DNA from: a virus
IMG/VR virus record: IMGVR_UViG_3300027797_000016
Coordinates: 32,001 to 96,000 of that record
Strand: one strand, 5' to 3'
DNA: 64,000 bases
The notes beneath the pieces are model-generated. The model saw only the letters and a program-made list of their open reading frames with translations, was not told the origin of the DNA and ran no database searches. Shown here piece by piece: positions 2,831-55,775 of this stretch (positions are counted from its first letter, which is position 1; the number at the start of each line of letters is the position of its first letter). Made by a program: the position numbers and the translations under genes.

Positions 2831-3091
2831 TCAATTTACTCCATACAATTCCAAAATCCTTTTCGCAACAACAATAGAAAGTTCTTTGTTCCCAATAGAC
2901 ATATCTTCGGTGATGTTTTTAGAACCTTCTTCAAGTCCTCGTTCTCCAGATTTTATGTAAACTCCACCATTATCTGCTTGGAGTTCCACCCGATAAGTCA
3001 TTCCTTCTGCCTCATCAGTATATTCGTAGCAGTCGGTGGTACTATGAAGAATTTGAGTTCCGGGAACGATATTGTAAGGTTGAAAAGTCAT
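2831..3091 (-). CDS. hypothetical protein
   Basis: first gene after promoter element. Confidence 0.65.
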   Translation of the reverse strand: MTFQPYNIVPGTQILHSTTDCYEYTDEAEGMTYRVELQADNGGVYIKSGERGLEEGSKNITEDMSIGNKELSIVVAKRILELYGVN

Positions 3092-3098
3092 TAGGTTT

Positions 3099-3172
3099 CT
3101 GTGTGTATGAGTGTATTATAATGCATCCAAGTCACCACCGGGTCTTTCGTGTGCCTCTTTCATAAGTGTCTC
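3099..3172 (-). promoter_or_regulatory. repeated early promoter element
   Basis: GACACTT...GGCAC...TATAATACACTCATACAC. Confidence 0.7.
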
Positions 3173-3394
3173 CGTTCTCTTGAGGAACTCATTACCTTGT
3201 GCTTCAATCAAATCGGCAAGGTTATTCAAATCTTCTACTGGAATACTGTCCTTCATACCATACTTACGGGCAAAGGCATAGATTGCTGATTTTAATGCGA
3301 GAGATTGTAAATGTTCCATAGAAATTGGACCTCCGTGTGGAAGACCAGCACAAGTATCGTTGTAGTATTCGTTATATCGATCCAACAAAAGCAT
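3116..3394 (-). CDS. hypothetical protein
   Basis: ORF between two promoter elements. Confidence 0.6.
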   Translation of the reverse strand: MLLLDRYNEYYNDTCAGLPHGGPISMEHLQSLALKSAIYAFARKYGMKDSIPVEDLNNLADLIEAQGNEFLKRTETLMKEAHERPGGDLDAL

Positions 3395-3414
3395 TTTCTT
3401 TCATCAAGATAAAT

Positions 3415-3474
3415 CAATTATACAACAAAAGGCACCTAAAATCAAGTGCCCTTGTGCCAGTTCTTCAAGCGTCC
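3415..3474 (-). promoter_or_regulatory. repeated early promoter element, TTGATT-N17-TATAAT with GGCAC/GTGCC hairpin
   Basis: read directly from sequence. Confidence 0.75.
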
Positions 3475-4254
3475 TTATGATATTCTAACTCTTTTGGAAG
3501 TATCTATTCCCCGTGCCCTTTGGTATTTTGCGAGATTACCAGCGTTTGTAATAAATCCAGTTTCTGTACACATCCATCTATGAGAATTTGCTTTTTTGCT
3601 ATTAATACTTCGTTCCTCAAAAGTAAGTGAATGAACTCCTATACCATCTTCATAACATTTTTTTCCTATTTCTCTTCTCTCTTCAATTGTTAAAGAATGT
3701 ATTCCTACACCATTTTCATAATTTTTTATTCCTATTTCTCTCAATTGTTCAGTAGTAAAGGAATGAACTCCTACACCATCTTCATAACATTTTTTTCCTA
3801 TTTCTCTTTTCTCTTCAATTGTTAAAGAATGTATTCCCTTCCCATCTTCATAACTTTTTTGTCCTATTTTTTTGCTTAATTCACTTCTTTCTTCTTGTGT
3901 TAAAGAAAAACAAGCATTTTTATTTTTATAAAGATTTTTTCCATTTTTTCTTCTTGTATCTAACGAAAAATTTCCACTACAACTTTCATTTAAGCACCAC
4001 TTATCAACATTATAAAATGGTTTTATTAATTGCCCCTCAATTTTTTGTGCGTGTTTCCAACCTTCATCAGTATAATCAAAAAGTTGTAATGTTTGTTTCT
4101 TTGGAGTATAAAGTTCCCAACACCACTTATGAGTTTTAGGAGAACCCACATAGTACTCACCAAACTTTTTCTCCTTATGAACTCCATAATAATAATACAA
4201 AACTTCCTCAAAGGTAATTTTATATGTGTATATTCTTGGACTTTGTGAAGTCAT
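3475..4254 (-). CDS. putative GIY-YIG-like free-standing endonuclease with 22-aa tandem repeats
   Basis: IYTYKIT...YYYGVH...YxGS N-terminus; SLTxEERREIGKKCYEDGxGxH repeats; HEG-type leader cassette. Confidence 0.7.
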   Translation of the reverse strand: MTSQSPRIYTYKITFEEVLYYYYGVHKEKKFGEYYVGSPKTHKWCWELYTPKKQTLQLFDYTDEGWKHAQKIEGQLIKPFYNVDKWCLNESCSGNFSLDTRRKNGKNLYKNKNACFSLTQEERSELSKKIGQKSYEDGKGIHSLTIEEKREIGKKCYEDGVGVHSFTTEQLREIGIKNYENGVGIHSLTIEERREIGKKCYEDGIGVHSLTFEERSINSKKANSHRWMCTETGFITNAGNLAKYQRARGIDTSKRVRIS

Positions 4255-31542: not shown

Positions 31543-32811
31543 TTATTTAGTTAATGCTTGGAGTTGAGCGTTGGTAAGTCTTTTTTGGTAGTATGAGAGT
31601 CTGGAGATGGTGTACTGTCCAATTGTAGTTCTTTGATCAGTATTTTTTCCAAATTCTAATTGATTAAATCCTGGAGAAGTTGCGTATATATTACCACTTC
31701 CTGTTCCTATTGTCCCATTTAATGCAGAAATAATTGGAGATGAATTTATATTGTAAGATTGAATTACTTTTTGAAAATTATTATTTGTTAAAGAAAATTG
31801 TGGATATAAATTTGTTCCTCCAACATTATATTGAGTATGAATACTGTTTGATATAGTTAGTAATCTAAAGTAATTATTAATCGTTCCAAATGTGGTTGCT
31901 GGGTAATTATTAATACTCCATATATTATTAGTAATATTTAATTCAGTTTTAAATTGTGCAAAAAATGTCCCCTCATCCTGCCGATACCACTCTCTAAAGT
32001 TCTTACCAGTTATTGATGCATTATCTGCTGCTCGGGTTCTTGTTGATCCTACTGTGGGTATGTAGGAGGTTGCGAATTCTCCGGATTCGACTTGTATTCC
32101 CCAAAAATAATTGTCTGCAGACCCGCCCTCAAGGTCAACACGAGCATCAGGTCCAAAAACTCCACCATTATAATCAGGTCTTGCAACTAAAGTACAACTA
32201 AATCTATACCAATCATTTTGATATCTTTCAGTTCTTATATTTTGAAATTGTCCGCTATTAGGATTATTTCCATCAAATCTAAAATTATATGTTCCCAACG
32301 ACCCGCCACCAACTGACTGTTGAAATATTTCTATATTACTAAAGTCTCTATTCAGTCCACCAAATCTTCTTTTAGAAAAAAAACTGAGTGCTAGTGTAGA
32401 AAGTCCATTAGCATTAAAAACACTTGACGTTAATTCACTTACAGTAATATAATAAACAGTTCCTAAAACTCCATAAGGATTTAATATTGTATCAGTATTT
32501 ACTTGTGTATTTAAATTCCCACTCCAACCTGACACAAAGTCTTCACTATAAGTAATCAAATTAGTCCTACTCTCCTCCACCAGTAACCCCAAAGATTCAC
32601 CAGTATAAGGATCGTGGTCGAATCGTGCCTCATTGACTCCGGCAAATTTAATATAACCATCAGCACCCACATAAGACCCACCAGATGCTCTAGTGAAGGT
32701 TATTCTTGGGTCTAGTGTTTTACTATTTGCAAAATCTAGGTCAAGTGTAGGTCTTACACTTGGGAAATTATTAACTGATGACTTATTGGAACCAACTCTA
32801 AAAACAGACAT
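31543..32811 (-). CDS. structural fibre/spike protein, paralogue 3
   Basis: same constant blocks. Confidence 0.8.
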   Translation of the reverse strand: MSVFRVGSNKSSVNNFPSVRPTLDLDFANSKTLDPRITFTRASGGSYVGADGYIKFAGVNEARFDHDPYTGESLGLLVEESRTNLITYSEDFVSGWSGNLNTQVNTDTILNPYGVLGTVYYITVSELTSSVFNANGLSTLALSFFSKRRFGGLNRDFSNIEIFQQSVGGGSLGTYNFRFDGNNPNSGQFQNIRTERYQNDWYRFSCTLVARPDYNGGVFGPDARVDLEGGSADNYFWGIQVESGEFATSYIPTVGSTRTRAADNASITGKNFREWYRQDEGTFFAQFKTELNITNNIWSINNYPATTFGTINNYFRLLTISNSIHTQYNVGGTNLYPQFSLTNNNFQKVIQSYNINSSPIISALNGTIGTGSGNIYATSPGFNQLEFGKNTDQRTTIGQYTISRLSYYQKRLTNAQLQALTK

Positions 32812-52561: not shown

Positions 52562-52666
52562 ACTGCTCTTAAAACTGACTAGCAATATTATTTATACTAA
52601 AAAGGAGGAGATTTTAGTCTCCTCCAACCTCAAAGATGCTAGTCAGTTAAGGCATTTTTATTTATT
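52562..52666 (-). promoter_or_regulatory. HEG leader cassette D
   Basis: CTTAACTGACTAGCA vs leader TGCTAGTCAGTTTTAAG; GGAGGAGA...TCTCCTCC-TTTTT; TAAATA and TATAAATA. Confidence 0.75.
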
Positions 52667-53290
52667 ACTCTTCCACTTATGATCTTTCCATTTTAGTCTT
52701 TTTTCTAATTCTTTATCAAAGATTAGCATATATCTATGTTTCCTGGTTCTCTCTCTCCACTCGCCTTTAAGACTCCTTGTAGGACCTCTTGAGTGCTTTA
52801 TATAGGATCCATCAGGTTGTTCAATCCAGAAGTCACTCTTAGGATCGGTCGTCCCAAAATACCGGAAATTAGTTGCACGATAAATGACTCCTGTATGGTG
52901 ATTAGCATCAGCATAGCTAAGAATACAACGAACATTTGCATCTTTACGAAACCTCTTGATACAACGACTTACGAACCAGGATGTGATATTATATTCTTCT
53001 TTTTGGACATCTGGATGAACACAAAGTCTTGAGAGTTCATAGAGACCTTCCTGTTCATTTCTTTGTAGTCCAAATGCACCTACGGCAAGCTCTGGAACTG
53101 GGAAAGAAGTAAAAACGCAAGCAGCAATAGGGCTGCCAATTCTAAGGACATCTGTGAAAGATTTTCTATAGAGTGCATAGTTATAGTGACTTTTAAAAGT
53201 TTTACTCTCATCCTTAAGATAATGATATGTTAAAAGGAGTGGTTCAAGTTCTTTTTTTGTCACTCTTTCTATATAGAAGTCACTTTTCAT
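52658..53290 (-). CDS. Mom-family (GNAT-fold) DNA adenine modification protein
   Basis: HYL...ELSRL...SWFVSR...LSYAD...HxGxIYxATNF. Confidence 0.75.
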   Translation of the reverse strand: MKSDFYIERVTKKELEPLLLTYHYLKDESKTFKSHYNYALYRKSFTDVLRIGSPIAACVFTSFPVPELAVGAFGLQRNEQEGLYELSRLCVHPDVQKEEYNITSWFVSRCIKRFRKDANVRCILSYADANHHTGVIYRATNFRYFGTTDPKSDFWIEQPDGSYIKHSRGPTRSLKGEWRERTRKHRYMLIFDKELEKRLKWKDHKWKSNK

Positions 53291-53308: not shown

Positions 53309-53842
53309 TTATTTACTAACACGATTATATGATTTTCCATAAAATGGATTATTTTCTCCAGTAATATCTCTTCCACAATCTTTCCAATATTTTTTGGCAG
53401 CTTTTCTCATTTTATTTTTAGTTTCCTCACTATGCGGTTTTCTTTTTCTATTCTTAGAAGAAAGTTTCATTTTTTCTATTGTTTCTGGTGAATGTTTTTT
53501 ACCATAAAATGGATTTTTACTGCCAGGTTTTGAAATTTTTTTCTTAGTATCTTCATTATGCGAATATCCAGATATTCCATCACCACCGTTAGTCATATTA
53601 CGAAGAATACCAGTTCTCAAATCTTTTCTACCAAAAATAGAAATCATATAAACTTCGTGTTTATTTGCCTCTTCTTCTGTAATATTTTTCTTTAAGAAGA
53701 TAATTTTATTATTGTCTTTTGGTTTTAAGTTTGTTTTATTTTGTCTAATATGACTTTTATAAACTCTCCTTCCTCTACCTTTACCAATATAATAGGGAGT
53801 TCCGTCTTTACGCAAATATGCGTAAGTGTAATATTCGTTCAT
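53309..53842 (-). CDS. GIY-YIG homing endonuclease with NUMOD3-type repeats
   Basis: YYTYAYLR...YYIGKG...NMTNGGDG; HSEETKNKM. Confidence 0.88.
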   Translation of the reverse strand: MNEYYTYAYLRKDGTPYYIGKGRGRRVYKSHIRQNKTNLKPKDNNKIIFLKKNITEEEANKHEVYMISIFGRKDLRTGILRNMTNGGDGISGYSHNEDTKKKISKPGSKNPFYGKKHSPETIEKMKLSSKNRKRKPHSEETKNKMRKAAKKYWKDCGRDITGENNPFYGKSYNRVSK

Positions 53843-53940
53843 TGTGTCTTGGTGTTGACTATTAATATTTATAACATAAAAGTGGGACTTATACAACTAT
53901 ATCCACCAAGACACAAGTTGCTGCCCATTTTACTTAATTA
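53843..53940 (-). promoter_or_regulatory. HEG leader cassette E (variant)
   Basis: TTGTGTCTTGGTG perfectly complementary to CACCAAGACACAA ending at the A of the ATG; TATAAATA at 53866-53873. Confidence 0.65.
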
Positions 53941-54275: not shown

Positions 54276-54347
54276 AGCCCCCGATCTGATTTGAACAGAC
54301 GGCCGACGGTTTACAAAACCGTTGCTCTACCACTGAGCTACAAGGGC
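54276..54347 (-). tRNA. trnT: tRNA-Thr(UGU)
   Basis: GCCCTTGTAGCTCAGTGGTAGAGCAACGGTTTTGTAAACCGT...GTTCAAATC...GGGGCT cloverleaf. Confidence 0.95.
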
Positions 54348-54356
54348 AACAAAAGA

Positions 54357-54385
54357 ATTATAGATTATTTAGAGCATTTTGTCAA
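54357..54385 (-). promoter_or_regulatory. consensus sigma70 promoter TTGACA-N17-TATAAT for tRNA-Thr, with TAAATA in the spacer
   Basis: read directly. Confidence 0.85.
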
Positions 54386-54647
54386 GGACTTCAGGATTCT
54401 CAAGATCCATTTCGAATAAACAAGGATGTGCCTCCTCATCAATTAAGTAGAATGATTTTTGATAGAAAAATTCTGGATCATATGTTAGATGCTCATTTGC
54501 TTTTTGGATGATCTCTGGATCATCTTGCATAATAATTGGTATTTCATCAAAAGTAAATGCAATACCATTAATATAATAAGTTAGAATAATAAACTTATCG
54601 TCTTCTGTCTCATACCAATTATAAGAAGTTGTGATCTTATATTTCAT
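54369..54647 (-). CDS. hypothetical protein
   Basis: YYINGIAFTFDE...YLIDEEAHP. Confidence 0.7.
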   Translation of the reverse strand: MKYKITTSYNWYETEDDKFIILTYYINGIAFTFDEIPIIMQDDPEIIQKANEHLTYDPEFFYQKSFYLIDEEAHPCLFEMDLENPEVLDKML

Positions 54648-54658
54648 TGGTTTTTTTA

Positions 54659-55387
54659 TTATTTATTGATCCATTTGCGAATAGAATTATCACTAACACC
54701 ATATTTTTTACCTACAGCAAGATAAGAACTTTCTTTTACTTCTTGTAATAATTGTTCTTTAGAAGGTCTTTCAACTTTTCTTTGAGATTTTGAATAACAA
54801 CTATTACAAAGACCCGTTTTGCAGTTTGTTTTTAATTCAACCTCACACGAAGAACATTTATGAATTTTTTTGGTTCGTATTATTTGAATTTTATTTTTTA
54901 TTGTTTGTGAGTTTTTATTTTTCTTATTTTTACCACGATATGTTGGTGTTTTAGCGTGGCAGTTGGGACATAATATTTTTAGATTTTCTAACATATTGTT
55001 ATAATGGTCTCCATCAATATGATCTAATTCTAAAGGTATTGGTTCTCCTAACCATTCACTCAACTCACAACATTCGCATCTATGATTCTTTAATCCCTCT
55101 ATAATTAATCTTTTTCGCAATTTGTTAGAATTGTACTCATAATTCTTAACAAGTATTTCGCTTAATGGAGTTGTATTAAACTTGTGAGTTTTCCCCTTTA
55201 GATGTCCTTGACCTGTAAAATGTGAAGTGTCTATTCCATAAAGTTTTTCAAATTTTTTAAATACTCTATAGTTTCCACCTCTTGGAGATAATCCAAGTTT
55301 TGTAAGTGCTTGTGCTATAGAAAAACTTTCTTCTACTGCTTTTTTAAAGTCTTCTATAGAATATGAATGTTTCATACTGATAAACAT
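54659..55387 (-). CDS. free-standing HNH endonuclease with C-terminal HTH (alternative start 55375)
   Basis: CECC...LELDHIDGDHYNNxLENLxILCPNCH; AVGKKYGVSDNSIRKW. Confidence 0.9.
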   Translation of the reverse strand: MFISMKHSYSIEDFKKAVEESFSIAQALTKLGLSPRGGNYRVFKKFEKLYGIDTSHFTGQGHLKGKTHKFNTTPLSEILVKNYEYNSNKLRKRLIIEGLKNHRCECCELSEWLGEPIPLELDHIDGDHYNNMLENLKILCPNCHAKTPTYRGKNKKNKNSQTIKNKIQIIRTKKIHKCSSCEVELKTNCKTGLCNSCYSKSQRKVERPSKEQLLQEVKESSYLAVGKKYGVSDNSIRKWINK

Positions 55388-55418
55388 ATTGTATAGTTAT
55401 TTATATAAGTTTATCAGT
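55376..55418 (-). promoter_or_regulatory. start-sequestering hairpin with late promoter TATAAATA in its loop
   Basis: ACTGATAAAC...GTTTATCAGT-ATG, 10-bp inverted repeat. Confidence 0.7.
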
Positions 55419-55422
55419 TCAA

Positions 55423-55775
55423 TAGGAGCGGGGGGACTTGAACCCCCACGGTCTAAGACCAGCGGATTTTACTTACCACTATAGTTTTCACTACCCTTTC
55501 GGTTTGTGGTCTGGACTATGCCTTCACCATTTACTAAAAGTAATTAGGTGGGTGATTATAGTCTCTACACGTTTTGTATTCTTTCAGATAATTCAAACCC
55601 TCTCTGAAACCACATTGGGTAGCGGTTGTCTTTCCAACTGTCATACAACTTCGCTCGGCGTTGGCATCAGCATTACCCGTTAAGCGTTCACCGAATTTAC
55701 ACCTTACTACTTACTCGTTTCCAAATAAGCGACCCATTTTGAGTCCGATGCGGCTACCAATTACGCCACACTCCC
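55423..55775 (-). tRNA. trnL: tRNA-Leu(UAA), exons 55742-55775 and 55423-55471
   Basis: acceptor GGGAGTG/CGCTCCT-A, long variable arm GGTC-TTA-GACC, T arm GGGGG-TTCAAGT-CCCCC; spliced loop CU|UAA AA. Confidence 0.9.
55472..55741 (-). ncRNA. ORF-less group I intron, 270 nt
   Basis: P AAATTCGGTGAA, Q AACGCCGAGC, R GTAGAGACTA, S AAGGCATAGTCC; P1 U.G at splice site; terminal G. Confidence 0.9.

Follow-up and report, generated by a model that had tools for sequence, protein, structure and literature searches.

A split tRNA-Leu(UAA) gene beside a free-standing HNH endonuclease gene in an uncultured cyanomyovirus: a candidate for collaborative homing at a tRNA gene

Two phage genes, both protein-coding, provide the known cases of collaborative or trans homing (PMC3984707, PMC2790892). 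In the case of T4 MobE, the nick made in trans need not sit at the insertion site for the intron to be co-converted (PMC2790892). Endonucleases are also known from phage tRNA regions: T4 SegB cuts tRNA genes and co-carries neighbouring tRNA genes (PMC2330249), and F-TflIV and the other F-Tfl enzymes are endonucleases of the T5 tRNA region (Akulenko 2004, as cited in PMC2330249 and PMC10644984). For I-TevI, segB and mobE, a hairpin over the start of the gene combined with an internal late promoter has been described (PMC2988022). At the time of a 2014 review, every known phage intron lay in a protein-coding gene, despite the many tRNA genes that phages carry (PMC3984707); the literature that we searched contained neither a later account of an intron in a phage tRNA gene nor any account of an ORF-less tRNA-Leu(UAA) intron in phages.

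The window analysed here is a 64,000-nt stretch of a viral record (IMGVR_UViG_3300027797_000016, positions 32,001 to 96,000; coordinates below count from the first letter of this stretch). It comes from an uncultured T4-like cyanomyovirus, and its flanking ORFs match Synechococcus and Prochlorococcus myoviruses. A preliminary description had pointed to an ORF-less intron in a tRNA-Leu gene beside a free-standing HNH gene and had suggested that the two home collaboratively. The arrangement itself is borne out by a 270-nt group I intron, by exons that join into a tRNA and by the match of the HNH protein to PHROG 10822. The main added value of the present analysis is a population of related loci against which the suggestion can be weighed; the single parts belong to known kinds.

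The split tRNA gene and its intron

The tRNA-Leu(UAA) gene lies on the minus strand and spans 55775-55423. Read on that strand from 55775, a tRNA-Leu 5' half ending in GGACU is followed by 270 nt and then by a 3' half beginning UAAAAUCC. ARAGORN, applied to the spliced product, supports exon 1 at 55742-55775 (tRNA positions 1-33, last base U33) and exon 2 at 55423-55471 (U34 to the discriminator A, with no encoded CCA), which are identical to the intron-less gene of the syntenic IMG/VR contig L447 at 33/34 and 41/49 positions, respectively. Joined (55775-55742 + 55471-55423), they form a canonical 83-nt class II tRNA-Leu(UAA). The split gene was missed by default ARAGORN and by Rfam at gathering thresholds, the sole call being a tRNA-Thr at 54347-54276, and the intron mode of ARAGORN miscalled it as Leu(CAA) with a 278-nt intron. 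We placed the intron between U33 and U34 because none of the alternative U/G boundaries yields a tRNA. The insertion, at CU/c...g/UAAAA, is one base 5' of the classical tRNA-Leu(UAA) site, and thus not between U34 and A35 (CUU/AAAA), the position that defines the classical Leu.3Ug intron in Williams 2020.

The inserted 270 nt (55472-55741, minus strand) were identified as a group I intron lacking an ORF, of the IC3-like tRNA type, with Rfam RF00028 and with a profile of phage introns. RF00028 aligns over its full length (model positions 1-253) to 55751-55490, with an E value of 9.3e-6 and 30 bits, short of the gathering score of 50; related phage introns reach 62.6-66.4 bits. The low score is explained by P6, which is about 70 nt longer than in related introns; alignment with L056 and L072 places this extension at 55574-55648, measured against L056. 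When 63 further phage tRNA introns, excluding the window's sequence, were compiled into a profile, it matched the intron twice (E 3.4e-23 and 8.1e-9), the two matches being parted by the approximately 70-nt P6 insertion. In P1, exon GGACU and intron CA pair with the internal guide sequence UGGGUC(G)C (55736-55729, the 3' strand of P1, assigned from the Rfam alignment and from reading the sequence), placing U33 in a U.G wobble at the 5' splice site. The Rfam alignment further locates the catalytic core at 55508-55568 (P7 5' strand, P3', P8 and P7 3' strand), with the P7 halves at 55568-55556 and 55522-55508, and the 3' terminal G of the intron is at 55472. With a conserved core, the U.G wobble in P1, the terminal G and exons that join into a tRNA, the insert has the sequence features of a group I intron, and it presumably self-splices to yield a normal tRNA-Leu. 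Its sense strand contains no ORF of at least 40 aa; an 81-aa antisense ORF lacks any family match and was treated as spurious. The P6 insertion folds no more stably than shuffled sequence.

The 5' end of the intron is common to L056, L084, L072 and L050. L056 and L084 share both this 5' end and the insertion position, and L072 and L050 have only the 5' sequence in common with the window: in L050 an extra stretch precedes it, and in L072 the tRNA 3' exon begins CAUAAU. In a first comparison, the match to HNH-carrying relatives was limited to the final 59 nt of the intron. A chimeric intron whose 3' end travels alongside the HNH gene was considered and rejected; the same stretch is 98% identical to that of the HNH-less L043, and the conserved P7-P9 part explains the match. 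The remainder belongs to the lineage inserted after U33 (L056, L084, L072, L050), and there is at most a weak hint of recombination in the P9 hairpin.

The HNH cassette and its neighbourhood

The free-standing HNH gene (54659-55375, minus strand) encodes a protein of 238 aa, assigned as a homing endonuclease on the basis of PHROG 10822, T5 hegA/F-TflIV and an AlphaFold layout. Residues 2-236 match PHROG 10822 'HNH endonuclease' (E 2.8e-55), and residues 72-234 are 38% identical to T5 hegA (F-TflIV, a characterised enzyme; E 4e-26); the Pfam HNH_3 match reaches only 16 bits, under its cutoff. In an alignment of 15 family members, the catalytic His/Asn/His (H119, N131 and H140) and the four Zn-binding cysteines (C100, C103, C136 and C139) are invariant. 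At a site adjoining the first Zn-binding CxxC, 13 of the 14 relatives carry Gly, and the window's copy, alone among the 15, carries Glu. The alignment and the AlphaFold model (mean pLDDT 80, pTM 0.39) resolve four modules, namely an N-terminal three-helix module, a Zn-HNH core, a Zn ribbon and a C-terminal helix-turn-helix, with disordered linkers between them. Modules on disordered linkers are the typical layout of homing enzymes. A Foldseek search against the PDB gave no match at E <0.001, with weak McrA-type and Cap5-type HNH cores only; a PDB sequence search returned IscB at E 0.17 only, and the NCBIfam matches were to the HNH domains of ZorE and IscB only, all sub-threshold.

The start codon conserved among relatives is the ATG at 55375, and an in-frame ATG at 55387 is not kept in them. 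The gene thus begins 47 nt (or 35 nt, if ATG 55387 is used) after the tRNA end at 55423, in agreement with the 35-50 nt initially estimated, and 96 nt from the intron end. As also noted from the letters alone, the start lies in a hairpin with TATAAATA in its loop. This hairpin (55377-55417, minus strand) consists of a 9-bp stem with arms at 55417-55409 and 55385-55377, carries the late-promoter-like TATAAATA at 55405-55398 in the loop, and its 3' arm ends 1 nt before the HNH start codon. Covariation among cassettes supports it: the stem of L004 shows a double compensatory change (CTGGTAAAC/GTTTACCAG), and the hairpin was found in about 25 of 33 distinct related cassettes, with stem sequences that differ yet remain complementary. 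In most of these 33 cassettes, the stem has 9-18 bp, a TATAAATA-like motif lies near its apex, and 0-4 nt separate the end of the 3' arm from the ATG. We hypothesise that the hairpin hides the HNH start codon in read-through (pre-tRNA) transcripts, whereas transcripts from a late promoter in the loop would lack the 5' arm, so that the enzyme would be made late in infection only, through the freed start codon.

Two residents of the locus lie beyond the HNH gene on the same strand: a 92-aa cyanophage ORF (PHROG 4134; 54369-54647), which in HNH-less relatives comes right after tRNA-Leu, and the tRNA-Thr(UGU) called by ARAGORN and Rfam (54276-54347). In S-SSM5, an intron-less tRNA-Leu and the tRNA-Thr are separated by 2 nt. 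L447 has the order ORF68 homologue, intron-less tRNA-Leu, 19 nt, ORF92 homologue and tRNA-Thr. Judged by this synteny, both the intron and the HNH gene are insertions relative to L447 and S-SSM5, and L447 represents the type of allele that the HNH enzyme would be expected to attack.

Comparison with L004 separates the two elements. The hairpin and the HNH ORF share 90-100% nucleotide identity between the window and L004, the cassette being 96% identical and the full-length ORF 95-96% identical, and the similarity ends at the tRNA end and at the HNH stop codon. The tRNAs themselves are of class II in the window and class I in L004, and the introns are inserted after U33 and after U34, respectively, with different guide sequences. 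A shared cassette beside a different tRNA and intron lineage means that HNH gene and intron did not travel together here: at least once, the cassette moved alone between intron-carrying loci, or the introns came afterwards. A search for target-site duplications, in the form of tRNA-gene fragments around 80 HNH genes, yielded nothing useful. A broken tRNA-Thr was seen only in DSL-LC03, where the break is in the anticodon loop and a related HNH gene sits at the tRNA.

Distribution of the intron and of the HNH family

The intron is part of a wider family. An exact-motif scan of viral contigs with the P7-P9 core gave at least 120 contigs, with 93 distinct loci among the matches listed; these are group I introns that interrupt tRNA genes, mostly in class II tRNA-Leu(UAA) at the classical CUU/AAAA site. 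Some of the phage introns occupy short tRNAs (73-77 nt) whose anticodon is UAA, and a few occupy other tRNAs. In GenBank phage records, full-length matches were confined to three unannotated huge-phage assemblies (LR756501/503/511), and in the cultured cyanophages that matched, the tRNA genes are all intron-less. Conservation of the catalytic core extends to at least 120 loci in viruses and at least 120 in bacteria. Most of the bacterial loci are tRNA-Leu(UAA) genes, chiefly from Alphaproteobacteria, Acidobacteriota and Bacteroidales; tRNA-Leu(UAA) accounts for 88 of the 120 loci sampled among the matches listed, which agrees with Williams 2020. No cyanobacterium appeared among the 80 bacterial core-motif matches listed.

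The HNH family was surveyed with a protein-pattern scan of viral contigs that was blind to the intron. It gave at least 559 relatives, of which the best 80, corresponding to 70 distinct proteins, were analysed. Within this set, 52 of the 70 (about 75%) have their genes no more than 130 nt from a tRNA(UAA) gene or within the intron of one: 24 lie 16-101 nt downstream of an intron-less tRNA(UAA), six just upstream of one and seven beside one on the opposite strand, 11 lie downstream of an intron-bearing tRNA, and four (L199, L214, L219 and L224) are antisense inside a tRNA-Leu(UAA) intron. A further 13 adjoin other tRNAs, and five are found elsewhere, two of these with an intron match starting at the HNH stop. 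A sense-oriented intron-encoded member occurs in the huge phage LR756511.1, and five more are likely among the motif-scan loci. No relationship is seen among the acceptor, D and T stems of the tRNA(UAA) genes beside which these HNH genes lie; the tRNAs are of both classes I and II, and near-identical cassettes adjoin very different tRNA(UAA) genes. As judged by eye, the anticodon loop is the sole feature that we could discern as common to these neighbours and missing from other tRNAs, which is the main reason for thinking that the enzymes read the anticodon region. The HNH protein is probably a homing-type endonuclease specialised on tRNA(UAA) genes.

The preliminary description proposed checking the co-occurrence of intron and HNH across genomes, and the outcome is divided. 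Among the matches listed, 26 of the 93 intron-bearing phage tRNA loci (28%; mostly tRNA-Leu(UAA)) have an HNH-family ORF no more than 1 kb away, as against 4 of 162 intron-less phage tRNA-Leu(UAA) genes (2.5%, within 400 nt), the latter drawn by two pattern scans; this is an approximately 10-fold enrichment (odds ratio 15, p 2e-9), computed over unequal distances (1 kb versus 400 nt) and ignoring relatedness. HNH genes were near 6 of 120 bacterial intron loci among the matches listed. On the HNH tree, however, intron-bearing and intron-less contexts are interleaved, with at least six changes forced by well-supported branches. The HNH proteins of L213 and L223, about 2% apart, lie beside an uninterrupted and a split tRNA, respectively, and L230/L105, L206/L195 and L182/L175, like L213/L223, are near-identical pairs spanning uninterrupted tRNA(UAA) contexts. 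The window's own HNH clade (SH-aLRT 96) has all seven of its distinct members beside intron-bearing tRNAs and spans four tRNA backbones and several neighbourhoods. The occurrence of near-identical HNH genes beside uninterrupted genes shows that an intron is not required for carriage. The idea that the intron immunises the carrier genome finds no support in that form: near-identical enzymes sit beside uninterrupted tRNA(UAA) genes, 11 of which retain the consensus anticodon stem (11 of 38 intron-less carriers in the wider set).

A difference between carriers and other genes was found in the anticodon stem. We compared 27 intron-less carrier genes with 56 background genes that had passed the same pattern filter, at 33 anchored positions. 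G30 is present in 13 of 27 carriers (48%) and in 47 of 56 background genes (84%), with a p value of 0.0013 that ignores relatedness and only just survives correction for 33 positions; its partner C40 is present in 48% and 77%, respectively (p 0.013, relatedness again ignored). These two were the only positions among the 33 to differ, and none in the T arm did. In intron-bearing genes, G30 is near-universal, and P1 pairing may constrain it there. This suggests that the HNH enzyme recognises the anticodon stem-loop, where the intron sits, and it fits the possible view that carriers escape their own enzyme either by an intron or by an altered 30-40 pair.

Proposed mechanism, alternatives and relation to known systems

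Based on these comparisons, we propose the following hypothetical scenario, in which the phage tRNA-Leu(UAA) locus is occupied by two separate selfish elements, a group I intron and, immediately behind the tRNA, an HNH cassette of the T5 F-TflIV/hegA type: (i) the HNH enzyme most likely recognises the anticodon stem-loop DNA of the uninterrupted tRNA-Leu(UAA) in a co-infecting relative, such as L447; (ii) a nick or cut there would lead to recombinational repair from the carrier genome, which would copy in the HNH cassette; (iii) as such a break would fall on or beside the place of the intron, the latter would be co-copied, amounting to collaborative or trans homing; (iv) the carrier genome would escape cutting of its own copy, in which the recognition site is split by the intron; and (v) in intron-less carriers, a changed G30-C40 pair may give the same protection. 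For the central part of this scenario, that the HNH site overlaps the intron site and that the intron protects the genome and is carried along, we regard the case for and the case against as evenly balanced. Of the original proposal of collaborative homing at a tRNA gene, the tie of the family to tRNA(UAA), the enrichment beside introns and the intron-encoded members speak for it, and the L004 cassette with its other intron lineage speaks against it. HNH enzymes such as I-HmuI can reportedly act on both alleles, as Goodrich-Blair and Shub are said to have described in 1996, and such behaviour would count against a protective role of the intron.

In the best-surviving alternative, the HNH protein would be a normal free-standing homing endonuclease acting on the tRNA-Leu locus, with a target that the intron leaves intact (in exon 2, in the T arm, at the 3' end of the tRNA or in neighbouring sequence), and the intron would be an unrelated passenger. 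A shared preference for one conserved gene, within the same recombining phage populations, would then account for the co-occurrence of intron and HNH gene. Such independence would fit the interleaved contexts on the HNH tree, the near-identical enzymes found in both contexts and the shift of the cassette between loci with different introns, and it has precedents in T4 SegB, which recognises a T-loop motif of tRNA genes (PMC2330249), and in MobE, which mobilises the nrdB intron without cutting its insertion site (PMC2790892). The specificity for tRNA(UAA) across unrelated backbones is, however, hard to explain unless the anticodon loop is read; the difference between carriers and background concerns the G30-C40 pair and not the T arm, intron-encoded HNH relatives exist, and the HNH gene is about 10-fold enriched beside intron-bearing alleles. 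We therefore consider an independent passenger intron possible but somewhat improbable.

It is quite unlikely, in our view, that the HNH protein no longer homes, being either a decaying copy or a weapon in competition that damages the tRNA genes of rivals or of the host, no gene conversion being involved. The exchange of Gly for Glu beside the first Zn-binding CxxC, seen in the window's copy only, could indicate decay, and intron endonucleases can serve interference between co-infecting phages (PMC11620839); yet the ORF is full length, its catalytic and Zn-binding residues are intact, it is 95-96% identical to that of L004, and the regulatory hairpin and promoter have been preserved. It is hardly credible that the split tRNA-Leu gene is dead and that its insert does not function as an intron: the sub-gathering Rfam score and the unremarkable fold of the P6 insert would fit it, but the exons are perfect and form a canonical tRNA, the U.G wobble, terminal G and P7 core are intact, the match to related introns is strong, and no second tRNA-Leu was found anywhere in the 105-kb contig. 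Overall, two selfish elements at one locus remain our best explanation, held with middling confidence; cleavage site, immunity, co-mobilisation, splicing and late-only translation are the parts of it that we infer.

Beyond the single locus, at least 120 viral matches (93 distinct among those listed) carry group I introns that interrupt tRNA genes, and one HNH family accompanies about a quarter of them. Its members look like natural intermediates, being free-standing beside intron-less or intron-bearing targets or encoded within introns in either orientation, and they open two questions: how mobile introns originate, and how self-cutting is avoided, by an intron or by a change of a single base pair. 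As the target is only about 85 bp long, the biochemistry would be simple. A more far-reaching idea, which we put forward tentatively and consider rather doubtful, is that phages form a large reservoir of ORF-less tRNA-Leu(UAA) introns, with an HNH family dedicated to tRNA(UAA) as their trans-acting mobility engine. If true, these loci would provide a natural series in which no stage of the Bonocora-Shub pathway is missing, from the free-standing nuclease up to the mobile intron, and the idea could account for the patchy, horizontally transferred distribution of this old intron in bacteria.

Among described systems, the S-PM2 psbA intron with F-CphI (Zeng, Bonocora and Shub 2009; PMC6083498; PMC3984707) resembles the proposed logic in that the enzyme targets the intron insertion site. 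It differs in that the host gene is a protein gene there and a tRNA gene here, that F-CphI is Endo VII-like whereas the window's enzyme is a Zn-HNH protein of the F-TflIV type, and that relatives of the latter also occur beside intron-less targets and inside an intron; cutting is predicted here. T4 mobE, next to the nrdB intron with its defunct I-TevIII (PMC2790892), is likewise a free-standing HNH gene beside an immobile intron, but the window's intron has no ORF remnant and its target gene is a tRNA. The HNH core and C-terminal helix-turn-helix of T5 F-TflIV (hegA) recur in the window's protein, and within the T5 tRNA region a gap of 23 nt separates hegA from the tRNA gene ahead of it, a similarly tRNA-adjacent position; it belongs to another phage family, however, lies beside tRNA-Ile2 with no intron and lacks the N-terminal module.

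T4 SegB (PMC2330249) shares with the window's gene the position of a free-standing homing endonuclease in a phage tRNA cluster and the control by hairpin and late promoter. In contrast, it is a GIY-YIG enzyme that reads the T-loop and so cuts many tRNA genes, whereas the window's HNH family is tied to one anticodon. Control of the I-TevI type (PMC2988022) is similar in that a hairpin masks the start region and an internal late promoter frees the start; in the window there is no evident Shine-Dalgarno sequence, and the 3' arm abuts the start codon. Finally, the bacterial, cyanobacterial and plastid IC3 intron (Leu.3Ug; Williams 2020, bioRxiv 10.1101/2020.01.27.920355) occupies the same gene and anticodon loop, has the same core and is also ORF-less; the intron described here is phage-borne, is shifted upstream by one base (CU/UAAAA), and possesses a guide sequence of its own as well as a P6 extension.

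A broken tRNA-Thr and the nuclease genes

In Synechococcus phage DSL-LC03 (OR003938.1), a broken tRNA-Thr lies beside an HNH cassette at positions 3088-3640 of the compared locus L001, where an intron-less tRNA-Leu is followed by the native tRNA-Thr reduced to its 5' half, then by the cassette and a second, complete tRNA-Thr. The native gene breaks off in the anticodon loop, and the cassette consists of a hairpin with TATAAATA and an HNH protein of 136 aa (core identity 57%), whose stop is overlapped by the complete tRNA-Thr, which differs from the native one. This arrangement looks like the scar left by an anticodon-loop break.

The window's own free-standing HNH protein differs at residue 104 (55064-55066, minus strand), with CECCE as against C-x-x-C-G in 13 of 14 relatives; this change, adjoining a Zn ligand, is possibly a weakening one. 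Some 380 nt past the resident tRNA-Thr there is a second free-standing nuclease gene, of GIY-YIG type with NUMOD3 (53309-53896, minus strand; sub-threshold match to TIGR01453), followed by a gene for a Mom-family protein (52658-53290, minus strand).

Short tRNAs with a UAA anticodon

Class I tRNAs of 73-77 nt with the anticodon UAA are frequent among phage contigs, accounting for 23 of 58 in a background sample. They occur in the viral contigs L005 (2694-2967), L173, L179 and L004-L012; in L005 and L173, such a tRNA takes the syntenic position of the class II tRNA-Leu, sometimes combining the cyanophage-type acceptor stem GGGAGUG/CACUCCU with a foreign tRNA body.

The intron core and its possible inserts in other phages

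The viral contigs L084 and L111 have an intron about 435 nt long that belongs, like the window's intron, to the after-U33 lineage; its P6 holds three T-arm-like hairpins (GGTTCGAWTCC motifs), which may be tRNA-derived inserts. The same intron core splits other phage tRNAs, at putative splice sites, in contigs L100, L109, L121, L128, L131, L083, L086 and L094, with anticodons read by ARAGORN that include UUA (suppressor-like) and CAU. Partial core matches were found in Pelagibacter phage HTVC120P (MH598807.1, 19653-19807), Atu_ph07 and the crAss-like cr111_1 and cr116_1. They fall within a gene annotated as capsid and in stretches that carry no annotation, and may represent more unannotated group I introns.
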